A DNA stretch of 54,425 bases from a virus (Duplodnaviria; Caudoviricetes): IMG/VR virus record IMGVR_UViG_3300020043_000840, positions 1 through 54,425 of that record; one strand, 5' to 3'. Position 1 is the first letter of the stretch. Each line of letters begins with the position of its first letter. Shown here piece by piece: positions 10,013 through 54,019 of this stretch. The position numbers and the translations under genes were made by a program. The notes under the pieces were generated by a model. That model had not been told where the DNA came from, did not search any database, and saw only the letters and a program-made list of their open reading frames with translations.

Positions 10013-10299
10013 TGAAAGATACTAGGGAAATAAAGCTACGAATTATTGAAGCAGGATACAAAGCTGTTAACCACCTTGTAAAGGTAGCTGAGGAAGATAT
10101 TATAAATACTGAATCAGATACAGATGTATCAGCAGATAAAATGAAGAATGCAGCAGCGGCTAAGAAATTAGCCATATTTGATGCATTTGAGATACTAAGT
10201 AGAATAGAAGCAGAGAAAGAAAATCTTGACTCCGCAGACAAGGGAATAAGTAAAACAGATACAAAACAAGGATTTGCAGAAAGAAGGTCAAAACAATAG
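10012..10299 (+). CDS. Putative terminase small subunit
   Basis: Small helical protein overlapping the start of the large terminase; positional call only. Confidence 0.45.
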   Translation: MKDTREIKLRIIEAGYKAVNHLVKVAEEDIINTESDTDVSADKMKNAAAAKKLAIFDAFEILSRIEAEKENLDSADKGISKTDTKQGFAERRSKQ

Positions 10300-17547: not shown

Positions 17548-17583
17548 AGGGGAGGGTGTCTTCAAAGACACTCTCCTTTTTTT
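17548..17583 (+). terminator. Intrinsic terminator built around the 16-bp palindrome (17556-17571)
   Basis: AGGGGAGG-GTGTCTTCAAAGACAC-TCTCC-T7. Confidence 0.8.
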
Positions 17584-32100: not shown

Positions 32101-35100
32101 ATTGAAAGAAGATTTATAAATGAAAAACAAAAACCAAATAGACCAAAATTATTAGAAGCTACTCAAACAGTGTCTTCAAAGACACAAGCACCTAAGTTTG
32201 TTAAAGATATCTCTGCTCTTATTACTCCGGCTACTGTGCGTGGGTTTAGTCCACTTACTGAAAGGATTAAGAAGTTGTCGTTGAATTATGATAAACTTGT
32301 AAAGCAATATGCTAAAAAGAAAGACCCTAAAGTGCTTGCTAAGATAAAAGCTGCGGAGGCTCAAATATTAAACGATGCCAAGCAGGAGATTATTGATGCA
32401 GTAGCAAAGGTAGATGGTGTAGCTGTTCAATTTAAAGATACTAAACGTGGATTATGGGATAAGAAGTTTGAGCCATCATTTAATATGACTTTATCAATTA
32501 GTCCACAGGCGGATACTAAAAAAGTAAGTGATTTACTATTTGACTTTGCAGAAAAGTATTCTCAAGACTCATTTATATTAGAAACTGAATCTGAATTACA
32601 CGATGAATGGGTTAATGGCAATATAGCTATGCCTCTTACTGAACTTGATGAAAATAAATTACAAAATTATCCGCAAATTATTTATACATTTGCTGAACCA
32701 ATAACTGACGAACAAGTAGCAGACCTATCTATAGCGTTAGAAAATGGTGGTGTTGATGCATTTAATATAAATAATAATGAAATTAAAGTATCAGTAATTA
32801 CATTTCTTTCAGAAGAACAACAAAATAATTTAACTAAAGATGAACAATACAATGAAAAACTTAAAGACTTCCAATCAAAGTCAAGTGCAACCGCAAATGC
32901 AGTCGGGGAAATACTCGGAAGTAATGCAGTGGATGGACGAGATGTTGTCATCCAAAAATCTTCTTACCAAGGAGCAACCAACGAAGGCACCCAAGACCCA
33001 ACAAGGAAGTTCGATAGGAGTGACATTCTTAAAGCGTTCCAAGAATCAACCACAAAAGTAGAAAAACTTGCTGTTGAACTTGCTGATTTACGCCAAAAAG
33101 AAATAGACTTACAAAAAGAAGGCAAGAAATTATCTGCTGAAGACCAAACTAGATTTAACGAGTTACTTAAAAAAGTACAACCTGCTGTACAAGGTACATT
33201 TGAAGCAAATAAAAAACTTTACGAAGACGCTAAGACTGAGGTAGAAGGTATTGCACAAGATGCAATCGCTCAAGTTGACGCATCTATATCTCCATTCCCA
33301 ATTAAGCGTGCTGAGCGTGCATCTGTTAAAGCTATCAGATGGTATAATGCATTTACAGAAAAACTTGGTGATGGTTCACGTGTAAATATTGTAGTAGATA
33401 CTGACGCTAATGCTGACAAAGTATTTAAAATTATTGATGAGAAGTATCCGGGTGATAATGAAGTAAGAAGAATAACAGAGACTACAGACTTAGGTTACCC
33501 AAAAAGACTTATTGAAATTCGTACATCTAATGGTACCATTGCAGAAATTCAAGTGATTACTAATGAAGCATATTTAGCTAAAGATGGTATTCAAGGATTT
33601 ACCGGAGATAGCAAACAAAAAGCTACAGCTAAACAAAAATTAGATGCGGTACGTGCTCGTCTTGGTTGGAATATACCTGATGGTCTTGGGCATTATTTCT
33701 ATGAGATTCAAAGAGATACTAATGTAGACGAGAACTTAAGAGACGAGGCTGCAAGATTAAGCGACCTATACTATGATGCGTTTACTAATCCGAAATCTAC
33801 ACTTACTGAGTCATTTATGAGGGATGTAGAAACATTTAAAAAGAATGTAGATGCTGCTGACAAATCAGAATGGGACGTAGGTAATAATGGCAAGGCTCCT
33901 CAATCTTTAATAGATTATAAGCCAACTAAGGCTGTTGTAACTGCAGAAGTAGAGGAAGAGGTGTTTCAACCAATTACTGCGAAAGATGTAAAGACGGATG
34001 CATTTACAAAAGATAATGCTTTAGATTATGAAGAAGATGAAAGGGAGTCTGACAGTGGAAGAATAAGTACATACTTGTCATCTATAACTGTTGAAGCAAC
34101 AAATGCTGATGGAGACCCTATTGGAACTGTAACTAAATTAACAGACGAGGATAAAATATTCTATTTCACTGTTGAGGATTCAGAAGGAAATCAACTTAAC
34201 TTAGATGGATATGATACATTAGGAGAGGCTAAGAAGGCACTTGCTGATAGCTATAATAAGATTCAAAAGAAAGAATTTGATAAGGCTGCTAAAAAGAAAG
34301 CAAAAGCTGCAGAAAAAGCTGCTCAAAAAGTAGGGGGTATTATTGAAACAGTAGATGATTTACTTGCATTAGACCCTAATGATAAAACTACATTGCAAAA
34401 GAGCTCTGAATTTCTTGATAGAGCAATAAAAGATATTGACAAATTTGGTAAAGAAAATACAAGTTTTGGTATTGCATTACCTGTAGTTAAAAAAATTCTT
34501 CAAGCAATTAAGGTTTTAGTAGATGCAGGTATATCAATACAAGAAGCTATCAAGAGAGTGTCTGCAGATAACAATGTATCTCAAGATTCGGTAAAGGATA
34601 TTTTAAATATCACTCCTATTCAAAAAGAATATGATGCCTTAATGATTAAGGTAGATGAATTAATTGCTCGCCAAAAATCAAGAGGAGTTGACAACGCTAA
34701 GATTACAAGAAATGTAGATACATATATCCGTAACTCAGATGTTTATGACAATGCCAATGATGCTCAGAAGAAGATTATGGAGCGTGAGGGCAGAAGTAAA
34801 ATGGAGGCACCTGCAAGACGTTCTGTGTCAATGGGACGTGTATTGGGTGCTTTAAAAGATATTACGAATATCTCAAGACAAGAAAAGATGCAAGTCATCA
34901 AGCAGATAAGAGAGTTGTCAAGAGATGCTGCAAAAGATTTAGCTAATGAGATTAGAGACTTGGCTAAAGCAGGCAAGATTACAGTTAACCAAGCGGCTAA
35001 TGTTATAGCAAGATTTGGTAAAGTAAATATGCTAAATGAAGTGTCAGTGTCAAACTTTGTAGATTATATGTCTAAGGTATTTACTGATGCCGAGTATGTA

Positions 35101-38100
35101 AATAAAATTGAACAAGCTAAGAGTAGATTAAAAACTGCAAAGAAAAACATTGCTACTAAGATTGGTATTGCTGATGGATTAAACCTTTCATTACAGAAGT
35201 TATTCTCTATAAATCCAACGCTTATACCGGAGACTTCTCTTGATAAATATCTTGAGTTAGTAAATATGTTTGGTCAAAGGCAAGCTGTTCTTTCTCTTGA
35301 AGAGAAGTCGGAAGTAACTAAAGACGTTGATTCAATTCTTAATGAAATAAATGAAGAGCAATCAGTAGCAAACGAATTAGCTGATAGGTTTAATTATTTT
35401 GAAGGAAAAGTATTTGATGATGACGGTAATTTGAAATATGCTGACACTATCAATAAGATGGTTGAGGAAGAAGTTATTGATGAAAAAGAAGCAGAAATTA
35501 TGCGTAAGTATAAGTCTGACATTGCTCCTCAGGTAGGCAAAACAAAGATGACTGAGCAAGAAATTGCAGAAGAAAAAGCTGAGTTGTTAGAAGTTTTAGA
35601 TAAAACACAAGTTGAAACAAGTGGATTAGCTACTGCTGATGAACGTAAATTAGCTAATCGTCTGAAGGATTTATTGTCAACAAGTGCTGTTAAAGAATTA
35701 AACAATACAGATTTAAAGAACTTAATAAAAGTTATTGATAACATAAATAATAACTATTTACCTCATTATGCATACTTGATGGTAAAGAAATTAAATTCAA
35801 AGAATAATGCAAAGACTTTAACATCTGCAATTAAAAGTGCTGTTGTTGCCAAGTTATCAGGTCTTTATTCAAGAGTAAAATCTTTGATTACAAGAAGAGG
35901 AGCAATAGAGGAAATGATAAGGAGAAATCCATTATTTAATATAGACCAATTATTTGGAAACTATAAAACAAAAGATATATTTAATTCTATTTTAAGTAAA
36001 GCGGCTGAAGGTGAGGCTAAGTTTAAAGCAGAACTTAAAAAAATTCAAAACATATTAGAGAAGGCAGAAGAAAAAGTTGCTAAGTCATTTAAACTTGACC
36101 CAAATAAAACGTTAATGTCTAAGTTTAAAATGATGACTTATATGGTTCAGCTTGAGAATGACTCTAACCAAGGTAGCAAGCAAGTTAATCCTGCATCTGA
36201 GTATTTAAAGGCAACTATCAAGCACATTGACGAAGGTAAATCTGCTTTTGGAGAACGTGATTCAGATATGTTGCAAGAGATACTTGACAAGTACTCTGAC
36301 GCAGATGGCAATATTGATAATCAAAAGTTATACGATTCATTTAATCAAGCAGAAAAAGATGCAATTAATGACATACGTGGCGTGAACGAATCACTTAGAG
36401 AGAAAGCCGAATATACTGCAGCAATTATTCGTGGAGATAGGATTAATCCACTTACAAACTATGTGCATTTAAACGTGCTTCAGGATAATCAACCAAACGA
36501 TTTAACTGCAGGAACTGCTTTCATTACTGAATATAATAATTCAATGAGACCATCTACAAGAGCTAAGTCATTGATAGCAAGAACGGGCAAAGTAAGTCCA
36601 TTGAACTTTGATATATTTGCATCTGCTCAACGTGGTGCCAAGTTTGTATTGATGGATTATAATTTAACAGAGCCTATTCAAACTGCTCGTCAAACTATTA
36701 ATGAAACAATAGCAAACTTTGAAGAAGAAGGTAGAATACCTAAAGAAAAAAGACAGATTATCAATGCAATCAATTCTGCATTAGAAGAAACTACCGAGAA
36801 TTTATTGACTAATTCTTTTGTGACTACTTCTATAGCCGATGATGCTGTTGATTATATTAATAAACAAGGTTATCGTGCTGTTCTTGCGGGTACATCAAGA
36901 TTTGTTTCAGAGTTAAGTTCAAACATTGGATTTGCTGTTATATCAGACCCTCAAGCATTAAACACAGGAATAGAAAATAGAGGTATCGTAATGTCTACTG
37001 AAGCTCCTGTTATTATGGAGAATGTGAATAGCAAGCAAACAAGTAGAATATTCCCTACAGATACTTTATCAGGCAAGATGATTGACACTAATATACTTCA
37101 ACAAACAGGTGGTATTAAAGGCGGAAAATCAAAGAACCCTGTTGCAAATAAGACTCAACAGATTTGGAATTTATCAGGAAAGAAATATACTAATATAGTT
37201 GAATTGATAGCTGACAGTTTAATATCTACACCGGATAAATTAATTATGCGTCCAATGTGGTTTGGTTCATTTGCTAATCATTTTAAAAGTATTACAGGTG
37301 AAAATGTAGACTTTGAGAAGATTGCAGCGAATGATGAAACTTATATGGAAGAGAATAAAGAAGCCATCGATAAAGCAAAGGACTATGCTGATGAAAGGTC
37401 TGTAATGGTTGGAGCTACTGATAATGCATTTATGGGAATCCTTAAGGGTTCAGTTAAACCTAATCAAAGTGTATCATTAAGAGCGTTTAACAACTTCAAT
37501 AACTTTATGACTAAGTTCTTGATTTTTGAATTTGTCACTGCTCGTACAGCTATCAACGCAGCAATGGGTAATGGGTCTTTAAGTAGAAAGCAAGGAGCTG
37601 CAGTACTTGGTGCTGTTACTACAAGAATGATTACTTATGGATTAATTACTCAAATGTTGGGTTCAGGTCTTATGGGATTATTCTTTGATGACCAAGAACC
37701 TGAAGATGATAAGTCATTTTTGCAAAAAGTTGGACAACAAATGACATCTGCATTTACATCATTGATATTTGGTAGAGATTTTGGCAATGCAACCAAGGCA
37801 ATAGTAAACTATGGTTTAGAAAAAGGCAATGAAAAGTATCTTGATTTCTTAAGAGAGGGAGAATACGACCCGTATAAAGATGCTATTCAATACACAATTG
37901 TACCTCCTGAAAAGAAAGGGAAAGAAAGAGATTTATCTGATTTCTTATTGAATATGGGTGGGGCATTTGGTCCTTCATTGAAAACTGCAGATTTAATTGT
38001 TCGTAAAGCTCTAGGAGCTGAGAAGAAAACAGAAGATGCTATTTCAAGAAGCGAAGAAGAAAACTATGTTCGTATCCCATTAGAGATATTAGGTAATGCA

Positions 38101-38514
38101 GGATTCATTCCTTTATATAAAGATATTCGTAAAGCTGTAATGAAATCAATATACAGCAGCCTTGAAAGCTCAGGTAAATCAACTAATAAAAGTTCAAGAA
38201 AAGGAATATCAGGTGGAGAAAGTAGTTCATCAAAATTACAAGGATACGAAAGCCAATCTGATATGAAGCGTTATAACCCTGAACTTTGGGATAGAACATA
38301 TGGTCCTAATGCTCCTGACTATGATGAAGAGCAAGCTAAGAAAGCAATTAAAAAAACTAAAGATAGTTTAGAAAGAGCGATGAAGGATGAGATGTACGAC
38401 TATATTCCTAAAGCTAAAGGAGGATTTGGTTCATCAGGATTTGGCTCGGGAGGTTTTGGAGGAAAGCAAAGTAGGAGCAAGGGAGGATTTGGGACAGCAA
38501 AATTTGGTCAGTAA
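29173..38514 (+). CDS. Giant internal virion (polyvalent) protein with RelA/SpoT-like domain
   Basis: 3113 aa, Cys-free, G/A-rich membrane-like N-terminal region, GGTEEMTTEVLQQ motif, RSH-like motifs at about 33290-33710, last gene of the + strand arm. Confidence 0.7.
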   Translation: MPDLKQVLKDFVATSNSGKYTDDATLLSKFPELKGYDINTLKDFVATSNSGRYPNENDLFLQFPEFGLGVKKKVATASSSGSGSSASQKQDEGILDYIGNVASTIGEEVSSAASAAKEGVVAAAEYVGEGIKEGYQYAGNVAAGINKGLLKVGSESVKGLGTFLQWGVGKDALNTSIVDFGNYLSKEIDEITPQDEKFKGSVSDQFSQALGNVAGLIATGGTSKAISLAGKAPSALQMAELAAQVAPKTAGVAATALKTVGSQIASPVGIVGGLQMGQSEFERAKAAGATDKQAYDVFLKNAVVGSALEAIPVTGFLKRFEKASEGGVTNYLKTKAIGGLVGGTEEMTTEVLQQLYANKTAKDIYNTNQNLFEGVGESGGLGFGVGFLLNAMGANAKILKKEGKTQEAAVVEKQAEEFREQMKNGGPSSYTISGIKVNPDVAVPFIQNLSGADLANANIQIVNNPELNNQVQQKIVTHSVREQVRQANPELNEPSLNAIADLEIQLRALDGNTTQTGKDKAAAIRTQIKNIQENQLQEEAVALTKEESVNKLIKIFVPKIEDPNFEITNWDKNLVSQIKDNPIQFIDSLLDLNKREIEANPQGANVGLLNNLTKKLEEAKKDYLNAEAAQAVQPTQAVQPAQPTQPAQVTAEPTIVVHSPVNGFGLQYSENVAQENITAPQDPRGMVTEEQQSELNRGKSIINEDTTLENGDKKVSILSEAYDAFGRKGVSVFDFVIPSNNQSTADGVKLIIEEVRKENLFTDLSPNELINQTVSKVKEYLDSNKTNTQQNAIQEQTTNEGLLLSQAAKLGLQQMGEGNIQPQVTTTRTQEVAPTQPQEVVNINIKNIVDEEGNINTYSLKAAVVDSPALINVNKNTIENTVGYLRQIADKVNDKELNDTVTYLEDASNMLLSIKNMEEGKRNEFLSNQENFYSDKKPPSEVLKRLNDWAKVLKGNTAKNNAERLLKEQYQQVLAEIERRFINEKQKPNRPKLLEATQTVSSKTQAPKFVKDISALITPATVRGFSPLTERIKKLSLNYDKLVKQYAKKKDPKVLAKIKAAEAQILNDAKQEIIDAVAKVDGVAVQFKDTKRGLWDKKFEPSFNMTLSISPQADTKKVSDLLFDFAEKYSQDSFILETESELHDEWVNGNIAMPLTELDENKLQNYPQIIYTFAEPITDEQVADLSIALENGGVDAFNINNNEIKVSVITFLSEEQQNNLTKDEQYNEKLKDFQSKSSATANAVGEILGSNAVDGRDVVIQKSSYQGATNEGTQDPTRKFDRSDILKAFQESTTKVEKLAVELADLRQKEIDLQKEGKKLSAEDQTRFNELLKKVQPAVQGTFEANKKLYEDAKTEVEGIAQDAIAQVDASISPFPIKRAERASVKAIRWYNAFTEKLGDGSRVNIVVDTDANADKVFKIIDEKYPGDNEVRRITETTDLGYPKRLIEIRTSNGTIAEIQVITNEAYLAKDGIQGFTGDSKQKATAKQKLDAVRARLGWNIPDGLGHYFYEIQRDTNVDENLRDEAARLSDLYYDAFTNPKSTLTESFMRDVETFKKNVDAADKSEWDVGNNGKAPQSLIDYKPTKAVVTAEVEEEVFQPITAKDVKTDAFTKDNALDYEEDERESDSGRISTYLSSITVEATNADGDPIGTVTKLTDEDKIFYFTVEDSEGNQLNLDGYDTLGEAKKALADSYNKIQKKEFDKAAKKKAKAAEKAAQKVGGIIETVDDLLALDPNDKTTLQKSSEFLDRAIKDIDKFGKENTSFGIALPVVKKILQAIKVLVDAGISIQEAIKRVSADNNVSQDSVKDILNITPIQKEYDALMIKVDELIARQKSRGVDNAKITRNVDTYIRNSDVYDNANDAQKKIMEREGRSKMEAPARRSVSMGRVLGALKDITNISRQEKMQVIKQIRELSRDAAKDLANEIRDLAKAGKITVNQAANVIARFGKVNMLNEVSVSNFVDYMSKVFTDAEYVNKIEQAKSRLKTAKKNIATKIGIADGLNLSLQKLFSINPTLIPETSLDKYLELVNMFGQRQAVLSLEEKSEVTKDVDSILNEINEEQSVANELADRFNYFEGKVFDDDGNLKYADTINKMVEEEVIDEKEAEIMRKYKSDIAPQVGKTKMTEQEIAEEKAELLEVLDKTQVETSGLATADERKLANRLKDLLSTSAVKELNNTDLKNLIKVIDNINNNYLPHYAYLMVKKLNSKNNAKTLTSAIKSAVVAKLSGLYSRVKSLITRRGAIEEMIRRNPLFNIDQLFGNYKTKDIFNSILSKAAEGEAKFKAELKKIQNILEKAEEKVAKSFKLDPNKTLMSKFKMMTYMVQLENDSNQGSKQVNPASEYLKATIKHIDEGKSAFGERDSDMLQEILDKYSDADGNIDNQKLYDSFNQAEKDAINDIRGVNESLREKAEYTAAIIRGDRINPLTNYVHLNVLQDNQPNDLTAGTAFITEYNNSMRPSTRAKSLIARTGKVSPLNFDIFASAQRGAKFVLMDYNLTEPIQTARQTINETIANFEEEGRIPKEKRQIINAINSALEETTENLLTNSFVTTSIADDAVDYINKQGYRAVLAGTSRFVSELSSNIGFAVISDPQALNTGIENRGIVMSTEAPVIMENVNSKQTSRIFPTDTLSGKMIDTNILQQTGGIKGGKSKNPVANKTQQIWNLSGKKYTNIVELIADSLISTPDKLIMRPMWFGSFANHFKSITGENVDFEKIAANDETYMEENKEAIDKAKDYADERSVMVGATDNAFMGILKGSVKPNQSVSLRAFNNFNNFMTKFLIFEFVTARTAINAAMGNGSLSRKQGAAVLGAVTTRMITYGLITQMLGSGLMGLFFDDQEPEDDKSFLQKVGQQMTSAFTSLIFGRDFGNATKAIVNYGLEKGNEKYLDFLREGEYDPYKDAIQYTIVPPEKKGKERDLSDFLLNMGGAFGPSLKTADLIVRKALGAEKKTEDAISRSEEENYVRIPLEILGNAGFIPLYKDIRKAVMKSIYSSLESSGKSTNKSSRKGISGGESSSSKLQGYESQSDMKRYNPELWDRTYGPNAPDYDEEQAKKAIKKTKDSLERAMKDEMYDYIPKAKGGFGSSGFGSGGFGGKQSRSKGGFGTAKFGQ
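31544..31693 (+). CDS. Candidate overprinted 49-aa basic protein nested in the giant gene (alternative frame)
   Basis: MPFKNKQQMKACYSAKQQNWDCSKWAKETSNLKSLPQGPKKSLLRNRKK*; A-rich leader AAATAAAACAAACACTCAACAAA-ATG. Confidence 0.5.
   Translation: MPFKNKQQMKACYSAKQQNWDCSKWAKETSNLKSLPQGPKKSLLRNRKK
32170..32185. repeat. 16-bp palindromic motif copy (GTGTCTTCAAAGACAC) inside the giant gene
   Basis: Read directly; encodes VSSKT. Confidence 0.85.
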
Positions 38515-41579: not shown

Positions 41580-43025
41580 TTACAATAACGTTTTTTCAAA
41601 GTGCTTTAGTGTGTAGTCTTTTTTCTTTGTGACAGCTTTATAGATGTCGTGTTCAATGCCTCCCTTAGCAAAAATCCAATATACTTGATTCTCTAGCCTT
41701 TCCTTTGTAGTCATTCGGTCTTTGCTCTGCCAATAACTCGTAGCACTAAAGTCTATATTGTAGTAAACCAAGTACTCAGCTTGTTTAAGACTGATTCCCT
41801 CACGTCCACTTACAATTTGTAGAGCTATAGATTTACCGGTGTCTTCAAAGACACTCAACTCTGAGGTTAGGTCATCTCCAAAGACTTGCTTGAGTGCATT
41901 GTATTCTTCTTTAAACTTGTAGAAGATTCCAATTTTACATCCTTCAAACTGCTCTTTGATAAACTCAGCCTTGCTCAAGTCAAGTATCATACTATTCCCA
42001 CTCTCAAATTTAATGGTACCACTGCATAACTGATGCACTTTCATCATCAATTTAACAGGAGTATCTGCCAAAATTATATCTTCTTTTCCTTCTACAACTA
42101 AATCTTTCTTTAATTTTTTAATAATTTTATAAGTAGACTCTTTCATTTCAACCTCAAGTATCTCTTCTGTGGTCTCGGTCATAAACCCTGCCTCTTGTTG
42201 CGTGTAGTTAATTGTGTACGGTTCCATTGCTTTAATGATGGTGTCAAGTCCTCCACTGTAGTCTTTTACAAGCAGCCCGTTAATCTTGCGTTGCTTCACG
42301 TTTACAAACTTATCGCAGAATCTATAGAAGTTTTTAAACTCAGAGAATGGATTGTTTGGTATCGCATAAACCTGATGATACATCTGAGAATAACTCTCAG
42401 GTGTTGGTGTCCCACTAAGTAGTATCACCATTGGTCTATGCTTTTTAATTACCTCTGCAACTAACTCCGCACGTCCACTTGGCTTTGGGAATGCACCCAT
42501 ACTATGAGCCTCATCGCAGATAACTAAATCCCACTTCTTATCGTTCATAACTAGGTGTAGGCTTTCATAATTGATGACAGATAGGGAGTACGTTGGTTTT
42601 AACGCACTGTAGTCGTCTTCAATTGAGCTAATTGCTTTCTTTTTAGTAATGAACAGCACATTTTTTATGCCACACATATCTGCTATACCAAGACTTGTAA
42701 GGGTTTTACCCGTACGAACTTCCATTGCAAGGTATAAGAATCTGTATTTTGAAAGTATCTCATACCCACTATGAATAATGTCAACCTGATAGTCCCTGAA
42801 CTGAAATTTATTTTGTTCCATCTCATATAGGTTTTTATAATACTCGCAACTGCTGACAATCTTATCTATTATATTCGGGTCTGTGTTATACTTAAGTGCT
42901 TCTCTAATCTCAATTGCCTTGCCTCTACCTGACTTAACAGTTTCGGTTTTAAGAACAACTTTTTTTAGAGATTCACAGTAATCCAACATTGCCTTGTTGC
43001 TGTATCCTGAAGTTCTTTCAATCAT
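41580..43025 (-). CDS. SF2 (SNF2-like) helicase
   Basis: FRDYQ, EVRTGKT, DEAH, LSGTP, SGREGISL, YWQSKDR. Confidence 0.9.
   Translation of the reverse strand: MIERTSGYSNKAMLDYCESLKKVVLKTETVKSGRGKAIEIREALKYNTDPNIIDKIVSSCEYYKNLYEMEQNKFQFRDYQVDIIHSGYEILSKYRFLYLAMEVRTGKTLTSLGIADMCGIKNVLFITKKKAISSIEDDYSALKPTYSLSVINYESLHLVMNDKKWDLVICDEAHSMGAFPKPSGRAELVAEVIKKHRPMVILLSGTPTPESYSQMYHQVYAIPNNPFSEFKNFYRFCDKFVNVKQRKINGLLVKDYSGGLDTIIKAMEPYTINYTQQEAGFMTETTEEILEVEMKESTYKIIKKLKKDLVVEGKEDIILADTPVKLMMKVHQLCSGTIKFESGNSMILDLSKAEFIKEQFEGCKIGIFYKFKEEYNALKQVFGDDLTSELSVFEDTGKSIALQIVSGREGISLKQAEYLVYYNIDFSATSYWQSKDRMTTKERLENQVYWIFAKGGIEHDIYKAVTKKKDYTLKHFEKTLL
41839..41854. repeat. 16-bp palindromic motif copy (GTGTCTTCAAAGACAC) inside the helicase gene
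   Basis: Read directly; overlaps codons for SVFEDT on the - strand. Confidence 0.85.
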
Positions 43026-45962: not shown

Positions 45963-45989
45963 AAAAAAAGGGAGAGCTTTCACTCCCCC
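45963..45989 (-). terminator. Intrinsic terminator after the SSB-like gene
   Basis: - strand GGGGGAGT-GAAA-GCTCTCCC-T7. Confidence 0.8.
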
Positions 45990-46017: not shown

Positions 46018-46344
46018 CTAAAATGGTAATGTACCATCGTCTTCTTCATCTTCAACCGCAGGTTTTGTCTGCTTAGGTTTTGACTGAGGCTTCGCCTCTG
46101 CTTTCTCTGATTGTGGTTTAGCACCACCGCCTTGCGTTGGCTCGTAGGTATCCAACTCAACATAATGATTGCCACTACGTGCAGTCTTAATGTTTAGGTT
46201 TACCCATCCACCTTTCTCGTGCTGTCTGATGAATGCTACCGCTTCATCTACTTTCATTGATAATCTCCCAACTACAAAGTCAGGTGCCTTTTCGTTTCTC
46301 TTAAATGAGAATCCGTCTGCAAAGATTTTTTCGTCTTGTGCCAT
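46018..46344 (-). CDS. Putative single-stranded DNA-binding protein
   Basis: Small beta-rich domain, flexible linker, acidic tail EDEEDDGTLPF; follows the exonuclease and annealing genes. Confidence 0.6.
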   Translation of the reverse strand: MAQDEKIFADGFSFKRNEKAPDFVVGRLSMKVDEAVAFIRQHEKGGWVNLNIKTARSGNHYVELDTYEPTQGGGAKPQSEKAEAKPQSKPKQTKPAVEDEEDDGTLPF

Positions 46345-46363
46345 TGTTCTTGAATTTATTTTT

Positions 46364-46417
46364 GTCCCAATCTATTTAAACTGAATGATAACCTTTGGGA
46401 CTAAGCCAACACTCAGT
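46364..46417 (-). ncRNA. Candidate cis-regulatory H-type pseudoknot in the SSB-like gene leader
   Basis: ACUGAGUGUUGGCUU pairs with AGGUUAUCAUUCAGU (four G-U pairs, one U-U mismatch); loop AGUCCCAA is complementary to downstream UUGGGAC. Confidence 0.55.
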
Positions 46418-46423
46418 ATCGTA

Positions 46424-46439
46424 GTGTCTTTAAAGACAC
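46424..46439. repeat. 16-bp perfect palindrome GTGTCTTTAAAGACAC
   Basis: Read directly; 6 nt after the exonuclease stop. Confidence 0.9.
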
Positions 46440-46445
46440 AATCTT

Positions 46446-47189
46446 TTATAACAAGTACTCGTCAATGTAATAGTTTACAATGTCATCACTTGGTTTAGAG
46501 CTAAAGTATTTATTATATACCTCAATGGCTTTTCCTACCTTAGCTTCGCCACCTTTTACAAAGTCTTCTGTTGGTCTAAAGATACCTAAAACTCCTGTTC
46601 CTTTATCAATTACATAGAAAACTAATGGCTTACCAAATAACTCCTGATAGATATAGCACTGAGAATCGTAGTTATACGACTTAGCACTATACTTAAACTT
46701 GTGTATGTCACTTGTAGTCTTAAGGTCAATCACTGCATTGTCTGTAACAATATCAGCCTTCCCCTTCCACATCATCCCCTGAATCTCTGCAACTGCCGGA
46801 GTCTCGTAAAGATTACCTGCCTTATAAATCTCATCATAGAACGCAATGTTCCCATTGATAATGCTTACAAGGTTTTGAATCTCATCTTGCTCCTTCTTCA
46901 ACATACAAAAAGGTAAATTGTTTTCTTCGCAGAATGCTTTGTACTCTTTCGTATTACGTGTACTCACATCTACTGAGGGCATAACCTTCGCCTTTTCAGG
47001 CTCCAAGATTAATTGGTGAAAGTATCTGCCATCCATAAATGCTTTGTTGTCTTCTCTAGTCTTACCAAAGTCTTGAGGATTATTAAGCAATACTCCTATG
47101 TCTGAATTGGATAGGTATTGTTTCCCAATACCATTATAATACTCGTTGTCATTCCTGAGCAACGTTATGATTTCTAATTCCTCTGCCAT
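46446..47189 (-). CDS. RecE-like PD-(D/E)XK exonuclease (DUF3799-like)
   Basis: LSNSD, G..FH..ILEP, KGKAD...IDLKTT, Y..Q.YIY. Confidence 0.8.
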   Translation of the reverse strand: MAEELEIITLLRNDNEYYNGIGKQYLSNSDIGVLLNNPQDFGKTREDNKAFMDGRYFHQLILEPEKAKVMPSVDVSTRNTKEYKAFCEENNLPFCMLKKEQDEIQNLVSIINGNIAFYDEIYKAGNLYETPAVAEIQGMMWKGKADIVTDNAVIDLKTTSDIHKFKYSAKSYNYDSQCYIYQELFGKPLVFYVIDKGTGVLGIFRPTEDFVKGGEAKVGKAIEVYNKYFSSKPSDDIVNYYIDEYLL

Positions 47190-49818: not shown

Positions 49819-50043
49819 TTAGAATGATATGGTTTCAAAATTATAATACAATACAATTGTAGCCTTGGGGTGCTTACTTTGTAATGCTGAGATATAATCC
49901 TCATTGTCATACAATATCTCATTCTCCCTTTCGTAGTCTACCATAGGCTGAATGATTTTTCTTACTTGTTCTTCGCTTAGTGAAGTCATCAGGTAGAAGT
50001 CTTCTTCTCCCCAAGCACTCGTGTTGATTTTAAATACTTGCAT
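49819..50043 (-). CDS. Hypothetical protein downstream of hammerhead 1 (74 aa)
   Basis: ATG 50043 (MQVFKINT...); the longer track ORF only reads through the ribozyme. Confidence 0.7.
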   Translation of the reverse strand: MQVFKINTSAWGEEDFYLMTSLSEEQVRKIIQPMVDYERENEILYDNEDYISALQSKHPKATIVLYYNFETISF

Positions 50044-50063
50044 CTTTGTGGTTTGATTAAATT

Positions 50064-50115
50064 TCCGTTTCATCCTTTCGGACTCATCAGTCGGGATAAC
50101 ACATCCCGATACGGA
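50064..50115 (-). ncRNA. Type III hammerhead ribozyme 1
   Basis: UCCGU-A / UCGGGAU-GUGUU-AUCCCGA / CUGAUGA / GUCC-GAAA-GGAU / GAA-ACGGA; predicted cut after GUA (50110|50109). Confidence 0.93.
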
Positions 50116-50120
50116 GGATA

Positions 50121-50136
50121 GTGTCTTTAAAGACAC
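50121..50136. repeat. 16-bp perfect palindrome, extended by flanking pairs to about 50115-50143
   Basis: - strand AGGGTA-GTGTCTTTAAAGACAC-TATCCT. Confidence 0.9.
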
Positions 50137-50150
50137 TACCCTAAGTGGGA

Positions 50151-51269
50151 CTAAGGTCTAAATCTTAAAACCTCAGTCTCAGTGAACCACTCATCGCAAC
50201 CACTACAATGATAATTTGCGAACGCATCGTGCTCTAAATCGTGAAAGCAATTTACACATATAGGTTTCTCATCCTCTATGTTGAAGTCGCAATCGTCACA
50301 CTCATCGTCCAATATGTCTAACAAGCATACGCTCTTGGGCTCATCATATCCCATTTGGGAAAATATGCTTTGATACTTTTCGCTTTCTCTCTTGTCCTCC
50401 TTCTCCCAATAACTCAATGGTCTTGTGTCCTGAGTGTAGGTGCTGTGATGCTGTTTGCCATCTGCCTTTTCACGTATGTTAAAGTATACCCAACACTTAA
50501 GCACTCCGGTCTTGGTCTTTATGTCAATCTGCTTCCTTCTGTACCAATCAGGGTGACCCTCCAATCTATCAAGGTTTGCCAATACACTGCTACTCACTTT
50601 GAATATGTCCACCTCCACGTGATGACCTTGTCCACTCTTCTCAATCAAGTAAGGCAATCCACTAATGACAAGCGGATACTTTTTCTTTGTCGTTCCTTTA
50701 GATATAAATTTGGATGCACTCAAGTAACTATGATAGTTACTATACCCTTTCTTTAACGTGCCATACACTGCAATTAAATTGTCCTCAAGCACATTGTCTT
50801 TGCTGTACCATACGCCATCTCTCTGACTCCACAACTCTTTGTTGTAGATTTGGTATGTCCTGCTGTGCGTGTTAACTGACACGAACCTGCACTCGTACTG
50901 CTCCAACTCCTTCTTCCACTTGTGGCGTGGTATATCTCCTAGATTCTCTGCTAGTACCTTTGAGTCACTCTTCTTGACGTTACCAAGGTTTCTAATTGTT
51001 CCGTTCATCATAAGCCATTCCTGTTTGTTGTTCCCGCATCTGAACGGATGCGTATTTTCTTTATTGATAGCACCAATGGTAGCGTATCTAAAGTGAGCAA
51101 TGAATGGTCTCTCTGTGTCAAGTACTTTGTACTCTGATGACTTGTGATATGTTACCTCAAAGGTATCTAACCACACAACCCCCAACCCGTGAGGATTGAT
51201 TCGTGCTGAAGTCTTTGCAACTTCCTGAGGGACTTTCTTCCCCTTCTGCTTGATAATGATTACACACAT
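50151..51269 (-). CDS. Class II glutamine amidotransferase fused to gamma-glutamylcyclotransferase and a C-terminal Zn-ribbon
   Basis: N-terminal MC, NPHGLG, HFRYAT.G...NTHPF, NG, SDS; AVYGTLKKG...LDRLEG; CxxC...CxxC. Confidence 0.85.
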   Translation of the reverse strand: MCVIIIKQKGKKVPQEVAKTSARINPHGLGVVWLDTFEVTYHKSSEYKVLDTERPFIAHFRYATIGAINKENTHPFRCGNNKQEWLMMNGTIRNLGNVKKSDSKVLAENLGDIPRHKWKKELEQYECRFVSVNTHSRTYQIYNKELWSQRDGVWYSKDNVLEDNLIAVYGTLKKGYSNYHSYLSASKFISKGTTKKKYPLVISGLPYLIEKSGQGHHVEVDIFKVSSSVLANLDRLEGHPDWYRRKQIDIKTKTGVLKCWVYFNIREKADGKQHHSTYTQDTRPLSYWEKEDKRESEKYQSIFSQMGYDEPKSVCLLDILDDECDDCDFNIEDEKPICVNCFHDLEHDAFANYHCSGCDEWFTETEVLRFRP

Positions 51270-51291
51270 AAGCTAAATTGATTTGTGGGCA

Positions 51292-51307
51292 ATGTCTTTG
51301 AAGACAT
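51292..51307. repeat. Palindrome variant ATGTCTTTGAAGACAT between promoter and GATase start
   Basis: Read directly. Confidence 0.8.
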
Positions 51308-51335
51308 AGAACCCGATTAATGAACTGATAATGAA

Positions 51336-51367
51336 CAAAGATACGACATAAATTAGACATCTCCAAA
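51336..51367 (-). promoter_or_regulatory. Complete Bacteroidota sigma-A-type promoter TTTG-N20-TATCTTTG
   Basis: Both -33 and -7 elements with canonical spacing, upstream of GATase-GGCT. Confidence 0.75.
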
Positions 51368-51368
51368 T

Positions 51369-51527
51369 TTATTTTTTGATTGCCTTGAATTTTGCACGCT
51401 CCAAATAAGGATGTTCTCCTATAAATTTGTAGAACGTTTTGTCGATAGCCTCCCACTTTGTGTGGGCGACTACTGACAGCACAAAAGTTTTCTCGTAGTA
51501 AACTTTAAAAAAATACTGATTCTCCAT
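51369..51527 (-). CDS. Hypothetical 52-aa protein (not in ORF track)
   Basis: MENQYFFKVYYEKTFVLSVVAHTKWEAIDK...; AAATCAAATCAAAATG leader. Confidence 0.65.
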   Translation of the reverse strand: MENQYFFKVYYEKTFVLSVVAHTKWEAIDKTFYKFIGEHPYLERAKFKAIKK

Positions 51528-51545
51528 TTTGATTTGATTTAAGAT

Positions 51546-51836
51546 TTAATAATCATCCTCCAATCTCTCACCTGCATACGACTCATCGAAGTATCTATCC
51601 TTACGATATGGATACTTGTCACTATCGTAGCACTTGTCACACCAATCTCCCGTTCCGTATCCGTACGCATCGCATCTGCTTTCTACGAACTCCTTTGTGT
51701 CCTTAGTTCCACACTCTCTACATCTTGGTAGATTCTCGTGGCATCTCTCACAAAGGTTATCCTCGAACCACATATCGTGGCGTCCTTGTGGGTGCCCACA
51801 TAGTGAGCACTCCCAAACATCATTTGCTTTTGTCAT
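51546..51836 (-). CDS. Cys-rich zinc-finger-like protein
   Basis: Four CxxC pairs in 96 aa. Confidence 0.7.
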   Translation of the reverse strand: MTKANDVWECSLCGHPQGRHDMWFEDNLCERCHENLPRCRECGTKDTKEFVESRCDAYGYGTGDWCDKCYDSDKYPYRKDRYFDESYAGERLEDDY

Positions 51837-52042
51837 TACTTGGATTTTTTTACGTGATAGATTCTGATTCCGTCTTTTATCTTTACGTCAATGGGATACA
51901 ACTCCTCAAGGATTGAAAGATAATCTTTGTAGTTTTTCAACTCTGCCTTAGGCAAGTACAACAACCTATCAATGATAGGCTGTAGGATTTCGTTACGCTC
52001 TCTCACCTCTTGTTCGGGTGCGAATTGTTTTTGCTTTGTCAT
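51836..52042 (-). CDS. Hypothetical protein downstream of hammerhead 2 (68 aa)
   Basis: ATG 52042 (MTKQKQF...) with AAATCAAATCAAGATG leader. Confidence 0.7.
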   Translation of the reverse strand: MTKQKQFAPEQEVRERNEILQPIIDRLLYLPKAELKNYKDYLSILEELYPIDVKIKDGIRIYHVKKSK

Positions 52043-52063
52043 CTTGATTTGATTTAAGTGGTT

Positions 52064-52115
52064 TCCGTTTCGTCCTTTTGGACTCATCAGCCTAAGCGAT
52101 ACACTCAGGGACGGA
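52064..52115 (-). ncRNA. Type III hammerhead ribozyme 2
   Basis: UCCGU-C / CCUGAG-UGUAUCG-CUUAGG / CUGAUGA / GUCC-AAAA-GGAC / GAA-ACGGA; predicted cut after GUC (52110|52109). Confidence 0.95.
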
Positions 52116-52131
52116 GTGTCTTTAAAGACAC
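52116..52131. repeat. 16-bp perfect palindrome GTGTCTTTAAAGACAC abutting hammerhead 2
   Basis: Read directly. Confidence 0.9.
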
Positions 52132-52140
52132 CCCCACTTG

Positions 52141-52716
52141 TTAAGCTATGCAATAACTCTCATTTAAGATTCTCACTGCACTATCTACGTCCTCAGGTCG
52201 AACAACTAAAAAGAAGTTAGGGCAATACATCCCTTCGGTATCTGACTCCATCCTTCTTGTTGGTATCCCTGACACGTTAAGCATTGCCTCCACCGGCTCA
52301 AGGCTTACCTCCATAATTGTATGGAACACCGCATAGATTGGTTTGCTGTATCCCTCACTCCTTATCCACTCGCTCGTTAAGTCGAACTCAGGCTCCTGCA
52401 CATTCTCCTCAGGGATTGAGACATCAACACCACGTGAAAAACTATCAACGTGAACCCAACTGCCATCCCATTCCACCTCATTCAAGTACCACTTACCACG
52501 TCTCTGAATAATATGAACGCTAGATAATCCATTGAGCCTCTCTTTTGTAGTTGAGCTATCCCATCCCGCATTTGTTATCCATAGCCCATCCCTCCTGATT
52601 TCAGCTATCTTGTTACCGAATAGCCATAGGCTCTCGCCATTTGTACGGCTGTTGCCGATTGTAAGTGAACGGCTGTTCTGAAAAGCGTTCACAATGTCTC
52701 TTGTGATTTTTCTCAT
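52141..52716 (-). CDS. Hypothetical early-type phage protein
   Basis: 191 aa, L.GNKIA...ITNAGW...TTKERLNGL. Confidence 0.75.
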   Translation of the reverse strand: MRKITRDIVNAFQNSRSLTIGNSRTNGESLWLFGNKIAEIRRDGLWITNAGWDSSTTKERLNGLSSVHIIQRRGKWYLNEVEWDGSWVHVDSFSRGVDVSIPEENVQEPEFDLTSEWIRSEGYSKPIYAVFHTIMEVSLEPVEAMLNVSGIPTRRMESDTEGMYCPNFFLVVRPEDVDSAVRILNESYCIA

Positions 52717-52829
52717 TTGATTTGATTTTTAGGTGCCTCGCTCTCTCTGAAGTCTTTGATACATTGGTATGCAAAGAAAACAGCGAAAGCAATTGTGCAA
52801 GTGAATGCAAAAATGTAATTAATGCTCAT
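52713..52829 (-). CDS. Small membrane peptide (38 aa, not in ORF track)
   Basis: MSINYIFAFTCTIAFAVFFAYQCIKDFRESEAPKNQIK*; ATGA overlap with the next gene. Confidence 0.55.
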   Translation of the reverse strand: MSINYIFAFTCTIAFAVFFAYQCIKDFRESEAPKNQIK

Positions 52830-52848
52830 TGTCAATTGATTGTAGTGG

Positions 52849-53043
52849 TTACTTAATAATTTTCTTTAACTCACCCTCGATAACTATCATAGATACAGCA
52901 AGGGATAAAACTAATAACACCCAAACACCTAGGAAAGCCCCCATTGAGGAACTACCCTTAGATAGTAAATTGATTCCCGCAATTTGTACTAATAAGCATA
53001 AGCCTAAAGTGATTCCGATTTTTGTGATGATTCTCTTTTTCAT
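52849..53043 (-). CDS. Two-TM membrane peptide downstream of hammerhead 3 (64 aa)
   Basis: ATG 53043 (MKKRIITKIGITLGLCLLV...) with AAATCAAATCAAATG leader. Confidence 0.7.
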   Translation of the reverse strand: MKKRIITKIGITLGLCLLVQIAGINLLSKGSSSMGAFLGVWVLLVLSLAVSMIVIEGELKKIIK

Positions 53044-53064
53044 TTGATTTGATTTTTGTGGTTT

Positions 53065-53115
53065 ACTGTTTCGTTCTTTTGAACTCATCAGGAGGAGCAC
53101 TCACTCCCCGACAGT
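53065..53115 (-). ncRNA. Type III hammerhead ribozyme 3
   Basis: ACUGU-C / GGGGAG-UGAGUG-CUCCUC / CUGAUGA / GUUC-AAAA-GAAC / GAA-ACAGU; predicted cut after GUC (53110|53109). Confidence 0.95.
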
Positions 53116-53119
53116 GGGA

Positions 53120-53135
53120 GTGTCTTTAAAGACAC
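53120..53135. repeat. 16-bp perfect palindrome GTGTCTTTAAAGACAC
   Basis: - strand GGGG-GTGTCTTTAAAGACAC-TCCC. Confidence 0.9.
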
Positions 53136-53146
53136 CCCCGTAAGCC

Positions 53147-54019
53147 TTAACTCAAGTACATTGATATGTCTTGATGTATCTCACCTTTCAGTATGAACGC
53201 TCTGAATAACTTTGATAATCTCAACACCTCATTAGCCTCATCCTCATTGCCATTGTACATTGATAGCACAATAGGTTTGATTTTCTTAAGTAAGCCATCG
53301 TGCGACCCATTAGGCGTTGCAATGCTGTAATTAACAACCTCGTAAAATAGCTCATATCTCCTCATCATTTGCTTAACCGATTGGAAACGACTAGGAACTC
53401 TAAACTCTAGGCATCCACCCTTTACAAGGGCTAATTGGTACTTATGGTGCCAATTGTTAGACTCCTCGCTTTTTTGCATCCTGTTGTTATATCTGCAATA
53501 GCTGTTTGAAAGACGCTTTTTAAACAAGGCGTAAATGATACCGCAATTTTTACGGATAGCTTCTCTTAACTCACCACCACTCATCCCGTCACACGCTATC
53601 GTGATGTGACCGCCACATCGTCTATCGGACGGGCTAAATCTATCATCGATAATCTTTTCCGCCTTGTGCATCATATCATACACCTTCGTCCTCCATTGAC
53701 CCGCGGGTAGCAATGGTAATACGTGGGTCACCGCTTCGTACCCGCAAGACCCGTCACGCTCAAACCCGCAAAACAATTCATATTCACGTACCGCATTTCG
53801 TCAAAGTTGGTTTTTCTCGACCTCAAACCCGATAGTGAATTTAGACTCATACTCACCATCCTCAAACCTAATTGCACTACGCTGTTGAGCGGGCTTAAGC
53901 CCTGAAATGTCAATAGCGTGCTTGCTCTTGTTTAAAAATAGTGGTGAGGGTTTCCCGTGGTAACTTGCCACTTGCCCCCTTCGGCTCTCGCCTGTTTTTG
54001 TGTAAATAATTCCGTTCAT
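53147..54019 (-). CDS. Putative amidoligase (COOH-NH2 ligase / glutamine synthetase-like) interrupted by one in-frame TGA at 53801-53803
   Basis: IGFEVEK NQL*RNAVREYELFCG FERDGS..YEAVT...CGGHITI...LEFR; the two track ORFs are in the same frame. Confidence 0.75.

Follow-up and report, generated by a model that had tools for sequence, protein, structure and literature searches.

A viral genome record of 54,425 bp (IMG/VR IMGVR_UViG_3300020043_000840; Duplodnaviria, Caudoviricetes), referred to over its whole length as the window, carries three hairpin-hammerhead cassettes on its minus strand, in each of which a stop codon, a hairpin, a hammerhead ribozyme, and an AUG follow one another in fixed order. 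The anatomy, conservation, covariation, spacing, linkage statistics, and genome position of these cassettes could be observed directly. This module is real and under selection, because the ribozyme stems covary, the hairpin adjoins the ribozyme, and the distance from the cut to the AUG is narrow. Judged by sequence, the three elements are active-type, minimal (51-nt) type III hammerheads in the promoter-proximal part of the replication-gene strand block. We consider it fairly probable that co-transcriptional self-cleavage divides a promoter-proximal polycistronic RNA into segments with hairpin 3' ends and ribozyme-capped leaders. The cassettes are listed below; scores refer to the Rfam family RF00008 (Hammerhead_3) and to R1, a model built from an alignment of 76 sequences.

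Hairpin 3, 53116-53139, minus strand: 10-bp stem around the 16-mer GUGUCUUUAAAGACAC (53120-53135) in the minimum free energy (MFE) fold; starts 7 nt past the stop of the open reading frame (ORF) at 53147-53776 and lies 0 nt from hammerhead 3.
Hammerhead 3, 53065-53115, minus strand: type III; RF00008 43.5 bits, E-value 2.2e-7; R1 71.7 bits; predicted cut after C53110 (GUC), 3' product from 53109; 66 nt from cut to the AUG at 53043.
Leader 3 and AUG, 53041-53064, minus strand: A-rich, G-poor leader (53044-53064), then AUG 53043-53041 of a 64-aa ORF (52849-53043).
Hairpin 2, 52114-52133, minus strand: 16-mer at 52116-52131; begins 7 nt past the stop of the ORF at 52141-52716; its two outermost pairs overlap positions 1-2 of hammerhead 2.
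Hammerhead 2, 52064-52115, minus strand: type III; RF00008 40.4 bits; R1 64.5 bits; predicted cut after C52110, 67 nt before the AUG at 52042 (68-aa ORF 51836-52042).
Hairpin 1, 50116-50141, minus strand: 16-mer at 50121-50136; outer stem GGGUA/UAUCC; begins 9 nt past the stop of a 372-aa GGACT-domain ORF (50151-51269).
Hammerhead 1, 50064-50115, minus strand: type III; RF00008 40.9 bits; R1 67.0 bits; predicted cut after A50110 (GUA), 66 nt before the AUG at 50043 (74-aa ORF 49819-50043); G.U at the 10.1-11.1 pair.

The 16-mer GTGTCTTTAAAGACAC starts 14, 9, and 11 nt past the stops of the ORFs ending at 50151, 52141, and 53147 (cassettes 1, 2, and 3), and the ribozyme, as delimited by R1, starts 5, 0, and 4 nt after the 16-mer in the same order. 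No U-tract lies behind any of the three hairpins, so they do not qualify as intrinsic terminators. An earlier note on this DNA, made from the letters alone, had described a palindrome without a U-tract 9 to 14 nt after the stop, a ribozyme 0 to 5 nt behind it, and cuts 66, 67, and 66 nt before the next AUG; our measurements reproduced all three statements. Minus-strand matches to RF00008 were found at 53117-53063, 50117-50062, and 52117-52062, with all 54 model positions covered and E-values of 2e-7 to 2e-6 (4.1-kb search). The core CUGAUGA...GAAAC has four occurrences (three sites) versus 0.28 expected. Each window hammerhead contains CUGAUGA, GAAA, the U-A pair by the cut, a 6-bp stem I, a 4-bp stem II, and an open stem III of 4 to 5 bp. 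The topology is type III in both the Rfam alignment and our alignment A1: loops close stems I and II, and stem III opens toward the flanks. RNA folds of the three cassettes (z, -3.2 to -3.5) predict an 8- to 12-bp hairpin, stems I and II, and an open leader.

Relatives were collected with a pattern scan for the palindrome core plus the hammerhead core, which gave 104 matches in 71 viral loci (98 real by the later R1, 6 spurious). Alignment A1 contains 76 distinct sequences, 62 of them exactly 51 nt long; 10 of 107 pattern matches were left out of it (6 spurious and 4 real with a stem III mismatch), and the four real cassettes were later recovered by R1, the model built from this alignment. R1, whose E-values are rough, identified 142 hammerheads in 74 sources (803,650 nt searched), all scoring at least 44 bits and none falling between E-values of 4e-9 and 0.1. 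Merging duplicates left 131 distinct contexts. A second scan, blind to the hairpin and based on ribozyme features only, yielded at least 66 new loci with at least 100 R1 matches (89 after duplicates were merged). The hairpin-blind analysis took in the 66 new loci only, not the earlier ones, and loci with the exact palindrome core are thus absent from it by construction. All figures given for this set, which is also the independent set because none of it was used for the model, are among the matches listed.

All three stems showed strong covariation. Paired cells made up 95.9% of the training set, compared with 70.5% after shuffling and 35 to 47% in slid controls, and compensatory changes occurred at 13 of 15 pairs; the extraction filter imposed three of the stem III pairs in this set and none in stems I and II. 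The independent set had 95.3% paired cells versus 61.5% shuffled, and stem I was 100% paired with all six of its pairs covarying. CUGAUGA and GAAA were invariant in 76/76 aligned sequences, as was the U16.1-A15.1 pair (76/76, and 85/85 in the independent set), and the base at the cut was never G in the 131 contexts (GUC, 77; GUA, 44; GUU, 8; AUC, 2). Loop nucleotides were conserved, as expected for loop-loop contacts. At the 10.1-11.1 pair of stem II (columns 33/48 in alignment A1 and 38/105 in A3), about half to two thirds of members have G-C and the rest U.U or A.A.

Standard Rfam annotation misses this ribozyme family. RF00008 gave 85 matches in 34 of 39 whole related records, of which a single one (1/85) passes the gathering score, a threshold that thus hides the family; the A.A class escapes RF00008 entirely, leaving four cassette-bearing records with no RF00008 match. 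For the same reason, a default Rfam scan of the window at the gathering threshold came back blank; the three hammerheads appear with an E-value threshold, at which the window has no other Rfam match. The related records contain one to four hammerheads each by RF00008, and five whole genomes contain three to four by R1. Prophage or host copies were considered and rejected: 58 matches to the cassette pattern were found in genome contigs, with no R1 hammerhead among them, indicating chance matches.

Separately, window positions 50066-50113 are 89.6% identical over 48 nt to a site in 51 records of LUZ24/PaP3-like Pseudomonas phages, where it is unannotated or labeled "hypothetical protein" and lies about 1 kb from the genome end. 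This is presumably the PaP3-type hammerhead tested by Perreault et al. in 2011 (PLoS Comput Biol; PMC3088659). In a BLAST search of a 5-kb query against a phage collection, only this Pseudomonas ribozyme core and a GGACT-type gene in MW202828 matched, and a 106-nt cassette query against the same collection returned two chance-level matches only.

The hairpin is coupled to the ribozyme across the family. The exact 12-mer palindrome core lies upstream in 106 of the 131 contexts and, with one mismatch, in 3 more; one context is cut by the end of its locus, and the remainder have another hairpin in the same place, mostly GC rich, with GNRA, UUCG, or other loops. From the 3' end of the hairpin to position 1 of the ribozyme, the gap is 0 in 116 of 128 contexts and at most 2 nt in 126. 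The 48 nt upstream have a median MFE of -16.3 kcal/mol, versus -7.25 kcal/mol shuffled. In the hairpin-blind set, the gap is at most 1 nt in 60 of 88 cases, and the hairpins comprise 17 GTGTC-N-GACAC variants with other centers and 71 unrelated ones. Because other hairpins stand in for the palindrome, it is structure, not sequence, that is coupled to the ribozyme. In six whole genomes, moreover, 16 of 21 hammerhead junctions have a strong hairpin behind the stop, compared with 19 of 354 other same-strand junctions; among nonhammerhead junctions with a spacer of at least 40 nt, the figure is 13 of 101. The linkage of palindrome and ribozyme asserted in the earlier note therefore holds in relatives as a linkage of hairpin and ribozyme, which are nearly always side by side and not unlinked, but the hairpin is not always this palindrome.

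Two other upstream elements were seen. A motif of the form CCUAAGCA-N-UAAAACUGCUU (5-bp stem, 11-nt loop) follows an ORF of about 340 aa and replaces the palindrome upstream of hammerheads at L049:9653, L033:5673, L021:669, L019:7786, and L036:5048. In L110, L119, L120, L123, and L113, an AT-rich hairpin, UAUUUACCAGUAAAUA, with a U-run lies upstream of the hammerhead, which begins after a gap of 0 to 1 nt in about half of this group and 11 to 15 nt downstream in the rest. At hammerhead 2 of the window, AAGUGG (52134-52139, 5' of hairpin 2) and the leader sequence CCACUU (52052-52057, minus strand) are complementary and can enclose hairpin and ribozyme by pairing; orthologues of this flank pairing occur in L045, L046, L050, L054, L017, L064, and L008, the last of which has AUGGU/ACCAU at the site, a possible compensatory change. 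As a general feature, such a flank helix was rejected, being strong in only 9 of 128 contexts versus 1.8% of permuted pairs; the nine include orthologues of hammerhead 2.

The distance from cut to AUG is similarly constrained, with a median of 67 nt (interquartile range, 65 to 72) and 106 of 131 contexts at 60 to 73 nt; in the hairpin-blind set, the median is 69 nt, with 60 of 86 listed matches at 60 to 76 nt. A same-strand ORF lies downstream in all 131 contexts and upstream in 126, the latter ending a median of 34 nt before the ribozyme. The leaders are 55% A and 1.7% G, and none of 113 has a Shine-Dalgarno-like motif. Such A-rich leaders fit initiation in Bacteroidetes, which proceeds without a Shine-Dalgarno sequence and is tuned by mRNA structure (PMC6847099). 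The narrow spacing may represent the minimum open landing pad for a ribosome in a compact genome. As a side observation, the AUG within CUGAUGA (50087-50085, 52087-52085, and 53088-53086, minus strand) is in frame with the downstream ORF, with no intervening stop, in hammerheads 2 and 3 but not in hammerhead 1, so ORF callers may extend genes into the ribozyme.

We suggest that each ribozyme would cut itself after GUC or GUA while the polycistronic RNA is being made. The upstream RNA would then end in a stable hairpin, a 5- to 6-nt tail, and a 2',3'-cyclic phosphate, a terminator-like, exonuclease-resistant end formed without stopping the polymerase. The downstream RNA would carry a 5'-OH and open with the folded body of the ribozyme (stems I and II), followed by about 22 nt of unstructured, A-rich, G-poor leader and then the AUG. 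The first cistron of each segment would thereby gain a context-independent initiation region, and the ribozyme-capped 5' end would be a poor entry point for 5'-end-dependent decay. The same hairpin would be combined with a U-tract where termination is wanted and with a ribozyme, and no U-tract, where an end without termination is wanted. Cleavage in vivo, stabilization of the RNA by its ends, and transcription as one early transcript are what we infer here from sequence. By the ORF map, the window cuts would release segments of about 1.0 and 2.0 kb with three to five ORFs each. The earlier note had envisaged separate, uniformly translated mRNAs; the module is indeed kept and selected, but the units would be multigene rather than single-gene mRNAs, and uniform translation could apply at most to the first cistron of each segment and not to the others.

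The palindrome also occurs on its own. At up to three mismatches, the 16-mer has nine copies in the window versus 0.31 expected: three are linked to ribozymes, one is part of a terminator, three stand by themselves between genes, and two fall within long ORFs. The earlier note had treated palindrome and ribozyme as one cassette, which applies to the three linked copies; with only three of nine carrying a ribozyme, the palindrome is an independent, genome-wide element. The other six copies are as follows.

17549-17583, plus strand: canonical intrinsic terminator made of the hairpin core GUGUCUUCAAAGACAC, a long outer stem, and seven U; begins 15 nt past the gene for a 472-aa virion structural protein (16115-17533).
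46424-46439, minus strand: palindrome without ribozyme, 6 nt past the stop of the DUF3799 exonuclease gene (46446-47189).
51292-51307, minus strand: degenerate palindrome AUGUCUUCAAAGACAU, no ribozyme; the GGACT-domain gene has its AUG 22 nt downstream.
10483-10498, plus strand: isolated palindrome, with neither U-tract nor ribozyme, in the 361-nt gap that precedes the terminase large subunit gene.
32170-32185, plus strand: palindrome in the 3113-aa ORF, sense; no outer stem.
41839-41854, plus strand: antisense palindrome, without outer stem, in a 481-aa helicase ORF that is on the minus strand.

By eye alignment, about 45 nt after the palindrome at 46424 resemble stems I and II of hammerhead 2 but lack CUGAUGA and GAAA. 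The stretch concerned (46314-46423, minus strand) was rejected as a hammerhead, with no match to R1 or RF00008, and as a tRNA; it may be a decayed ribozyme.

In related records, the 12-mer core is present in 37 of 39, from one site in G016 to 9 to 16 sites in six whole genomes; a reversed-pattern control was almost absent (five matches in total over the 39 records). Of 75 core sites in the six genomes, 17 are linked to ribozymes and 8 intergenic sites have a U-tract (10 sites in all). About 30 of the 75 lie inside ORFs, in both orientations and without outer stems, in ORF maps that are ATG-only and crude, so that some sites are misfiled and at least two ribozyme-linked palindromes were scored as coding. 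Maps of the same kind underlie the gene layout of the window, the counts of hairpins at gene junctions, and the placing of hammerheads within strand blocks. Intergenic copies are strand oriented (UUCAAA, 28; UUUGAA, 3), and ribozyme-linked copies are nearly all sense (86, versus 1 antisense).

Comparison at orthologous junctions separates the hairpin from the ribozyme. The early region of MW202828 (MW202828.1, 13746-25155), the closest GenBank relative (our L076), has 14 copies of the perfect palindrome GTGTCGTTAACGACAC, whose arms are those of the window and whose center differs. Most directly follow stops, 16 to 35 nt before the next AUG, and one stands where the orthologous junction in the window has hammerhead 1. 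Behind the DUF3799 exonuclease gene, the hairpin is conserved down to about 50% protein identity, and in close relatives it is followed within a few nucleotides by a tRNA or tRNA-like gene (in L008 at 10169-10260; RF00005, 43.6 bits). Such a gene, with an insertion of about 28 nt in the D-arm region, is found at this junction in L008, L045, L079, L017, L046, L056, L064, and L074; ARAGORN called a tRNA in L008 and found none in L079, L045, or L017. The pairing of hairpin and tRNA-like gene parallels that of hairpin and hammerhead and would provide an RNase P cut site. From these occurrences of the palindrome on its own, with a U-tract, or before a tRNA-like gene, we conclude that the hairpin is the older, more general gene-end mark and that the ribozyme is one of several elements found behind it.

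A broader reading is possible and is offered tentatively: a modular RNA punctuation in which a lineage-specific hairpin marks cistron boundaries, the modules 3' of it are exchangeable, and the cassettes double as junctions for swapping early genes. The hairpin, with arms GUGUC/GACAC and a variable center, would possibly be read by a phage or host factor. Behind it, a U-tract would mean termination, a hammerhead a protein-free cut with read-through, and a tRNA-like gene an RNase P cut; or there would be nothing. On such a scheme, the hammerhead would give terminator-like 3' ends without terminating, together with a standardized, ribozyme-capped 5'-OH leader downstream.

The window is the whole IMG/VR record, linear and about 90% complete by estimate. 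Structural and packaging genes occupy the plus strand at 562-38514 (terminase, portal, virion proteins, and ORFs of 1912, 1470, and 3113 aa), and replication and small accessory genes occupy the minus strand from 54.4 to 38.5 kb. In its terminase, the phage shares 82% identity with Caudoviricetes sp. MW202828 and 47% with Flavobacterium Elemovirus phages; other relatives infect Cellulophaga, Tenacibaculum, and Maribacter. Given the hosts of these relatives, the host is likely of the Flavobacteriia type. The complete phage genome would measure about 55 to 60 kb. No Pfam family was found in the 3113-aa virion-block protein (29173-38514, plus strand), whose residues 1351-1537 resemble Tas1, a RelA/SpoT-like (p)ppApp synthetase toxin (PDB 6ox6; E-value 2.3e-5). 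A phage-encoded RNA polymerase within this protein was considered and set aside, the Tas1-like stretch being its sole PDB sequence match. A canonical intrinsic terminator without the palindrome, GGGGGAGUGAAAGCUCUCCC plus a U-run, lies at 45970-45989 (minus strand) between a 108-aa ORF and the 807-aa primase/helicase gene.

In all five complete relatives, a divergent junction opens the strand block that holds the three to four hammerheads, which lie 0.7 to 5.7 kb inside it. Flavobacterium phage elemoA_7-9A offers a natural contrast (n = 1): it has a single hammerhead (core CUGAAGA) in the 5' untranslated region of its first gene, with no upstream ORF and no hairpin. Genes downstream of the cassettes turn over. 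Between L045 and L046, the upstream 400 nt are 87.8% identical and the ribozyme 100%, whereas the downstream sequence is 33.6% identical, that is, unrelated; the corresponding values are 74.8%, 94.2%, and 13.1% for L017 and L054 and 69.5%, 98.1%, and 40.8% for window hammerhead 2 and L054. In 6 of 11 hand-picked pairs, the upstream gene and ribozyme are conserved and the downstream 25 to 400 nt are less than 45% identical, which suggests that the cassettes mark gene-swap boundaries. In the compared pairs, the ribozyme is more conserved than the neighboring coding sequence.

Several results weigh against the proposal that self-cleavage divides an early polycistronic RNA at these sites. One long transcript is an assumption: in the window, a Bacteroidetes-type promoter pattern gave 5 matches versus 4.9 expected and a sigma-70 scan gave 25 versus 28.3, both at chance level. 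All three RF00008 scores are under the gathering score of 48.5 bits, which is a curation cutoff rather than a structural feature, and the structural features are all present. The 10.1-11.1 pair is noncanonical in 25 of 76 sequences of the first set and 41 of 85 of the independent set. Stem III is short, and the outer pairs of hairpin 2 compete with stem III of hammerhead 2. In the hairpin-blind set, the nearest hairpin is at least 9 nt away in 14 of the 88 listed matches. Palindromes inside ORFs in both orientations are unexplained by a role at RNA 3' ends. Finally, MW202828 has no hammerhead by RF00008 and none of the window's 12-mer core; its palindromes without hammerheads imply that the hairpin has a role independent of the ribozyme and that the cut is dispensable.

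The hairpin could instead serve mainly the ribozyme, as a helix stacked on the short stem III that acts as a folding clamp or insulator and shields the 51-nt fold from upstream coding sequence and terminating ribosomes, with 3'-end protection incidental. Such a role is favored by the direct contact of hairpin and stem III, with a gap of 0 nt in 116 of 128 contexts, by the 4 to 5 pairs of stem III, by the hairpins of unrelated sequence that stand in for the palindrome, and by a hairpin base about 4 to 9 nt past the stop codon. We nevertheless regard it as rather unlikely to be the main function. Stacking is not universal, with gaps of at least 2 nt in 28 of 88 listed members of the independent set and of at least 9 nt in 14; the elemoA hammerhead has a stem III of equal length and no hairpin; the same hairpin stands at other gene ends alone or with a U-tract; and the outer pairs of hairpin 2 form at the expense of stem III instead of lengthening it. 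Cassettes might also be chiefly recombination modules for swapping early genes, as in PeSL motifs (see below), with RNA cutting secondary. Copies within one genome, however, diverge in each of the three stems and agree only at positions under functional constraint, leaving little homology for recombination; compensatory changes indicate selection on RNA structure; and neither the AUG spacing nor the invariant catalytic core would be explained. These points make recombination an unlikely primary role, even though synteny breaks coincide with the cassette (L045/L046, L017/L054, and hammerhead 2/L054) and hammerhead-flanked genes are described as not constant by Perreault et al. 2011 (PMC3088659). 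Both the clamp and the recombination role are compatible with cleavage of the early RNA into segments and do not exclude it.

Two further explanations were considered. The palindrome could act as a DNA or transcription signal, namely, an operator-like site for a dimeric phage protein, a promoter element, or a factor-dependent terminator, such that transcripts start or end there and the hammerhead merely trims a short 5' leader. The 16-mer is indeed a perfect palindrome; its arms are conserved and its center is lineage specific (GTGTC-TTTAAA-GACAC here, GTGTC-GTTAAC-GACAC 14 times in MW202828, and others elsewhere); ORFs contain about 30 of the 75 sites, in either orientation and with no outer stem; and the reversed-pattern control is nearly absent. 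Yet the 28:3 and 86:1 orientation biases and the covariation of the outer stems count against such a signal, the 0 to 5 nt between 16-mer and ribozyme are too few to hold a start site from which stem III would still be transcribed, and unrelated hairpins take the place of the palindrome in 24 of 131 contexts of the first set and in 71 of 88 listed in the hairpin-blind set, from which exact-core loci were left out. In addition, with a U-tract the palindrome resembles an ordinary intrinsic terminator. We therefore judge a DNA-level signal to be quite improbable. Circular mRNAs, formed when segments between two hammerheads are joined by self-ligation or by an RtcB-type ligase, are very improbable. 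The products would carry suitable ends (5'-OH and 2',3'-cyclic phosphate), and stem III is identical in hammerheads 2 and 1 (UCCGU/ACGGA), so that the intervening 2-kb segment could rebuild a hybrid ribozyme. We rejected circularization through compatible neighboring stems III because consecutive hammerheads are compatible in 27 of 75 cases versus 28.5% of random pairs, which is no enrichment; the close relative L008 has incompatible neighbors, and Perreault et al. sought circular or spliced products and found none (PMC3088659).

The role of most genome-encoded hammerheads is called elusive or open in two sources (PMC6765202; PMC13725137). The family described here is an unusually clean, testable case: near-identical 51-nt ribozymes number in the hundreds and stand in a single fixed arrangement, which runs from the stop codon through hairpin and ribozyme to an open leader of about 22 nt and the AUG. 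The parts come apart in natural variants: some hairpins stand by themselves, others precede a U-tract or a tRNA-like gene, and a ribozyme with no gene upstream lacks the hairpin. In hosts without Shine-Dalgarno-guided initiation, the structure of the leader should matter greatly. If our proposal is true, the cassette would be a natural counterpart of the ribozyme insulators of synthetic biology and a compact part for building operons in Bacteroidota.

Known systems offer functional analogies. In phage T7, a long early RNA is cut at intercistronic structures by host RNase III, and upstream products end in a protective stem. There, a protein cuts inside the hairpin and leaves 5'-phosphate and 3'-OH ends, whereas here the RNA itself would cut next to the hairpin and leave 5'-OH and cyclic phosphate ends. 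RiboJ is an engineered hammerhead-type insulator placed upstream of the translation initiation region, where it removes upstream context and leaves a structured 5' end. The cassettes resemble it in having a self-cleaving hammerhead-type ribozyme directly upstream of that region; RiboJ, however, is used after promoters and has a helper hairpin 3' of the ribozyme, while the hairpin here is 5' of the cut and would stay with the upstream RNA. The PeSL cassettes of T4-type phages are reportedly repeats of a promoter plus stem-loop between small early genes, with a proposed role in recombination. Like them, the window cassettes are repeated composite stem-loop motifs at early-gene boundaries where related genomes differ; PeSL contains a promoter and no ribozyme, and the window cassettes contain a ribozyme. 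Relative to RF00008, the canonical core, three stems, and open stem III are alike, and the 10.1-11.1 pair is often noncanonical here.

The closest precedents are natural phage hammerheads described by Perreault et al. 2011 (PMC3088659). In haloviruses HF1 and HF2, a hammerhead lies upstream of an early helicase operon, with a mapped 5' end near the cleavage site (PMC3088659). It shares with our elements a position a short distance upstream of an early polycistronic start codon; it differs in being a single copy with a variant core, 13 nt from the start codon, in an archaeal host, with no upstream hairpin described in that text. The same paper reports clustered hammerheads flanking genes in prophages and phages, cleavage of tandem sets in vitro, and a proposal that processing of long phage transcripts yields mRNAs the length of an operon or a gene (PMC3088659). 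Like those clusters, which consist of multiple intergenic, co-oriented hammerheads flanking single genes or short blocks of variable identity, the window has three co-oriented hammerheads within 3.1 kb on the gene strand. The suggestion in the earlier note that this is the window's best candidate for an undescribed system thus does not hold for the kind of system, and Dataset S1 of the 2011 paper may already contain members of the window's subfamily. The 2011 sets mix types I, II, and III, whereas the elements here are uniform 51-nt type III; an obligate 5'-abutting hairpin, a fixed start-codon distance, and a Flavobacteriia phage group are not mentioned in the accessible text (PMC3088659). 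In the literature searched, which did not extend to subscription journals or supplements, no description was found of hairpin-coupled hammerheads with fixed spacing or of a Flavobacteriia-phage subfamily. Hammerhead processing of phage transcripts was thus already proposed in 2011 (PMC3088659), and what is new is the obligate coupling to a hairpin and the fixed spacing to the start codon.

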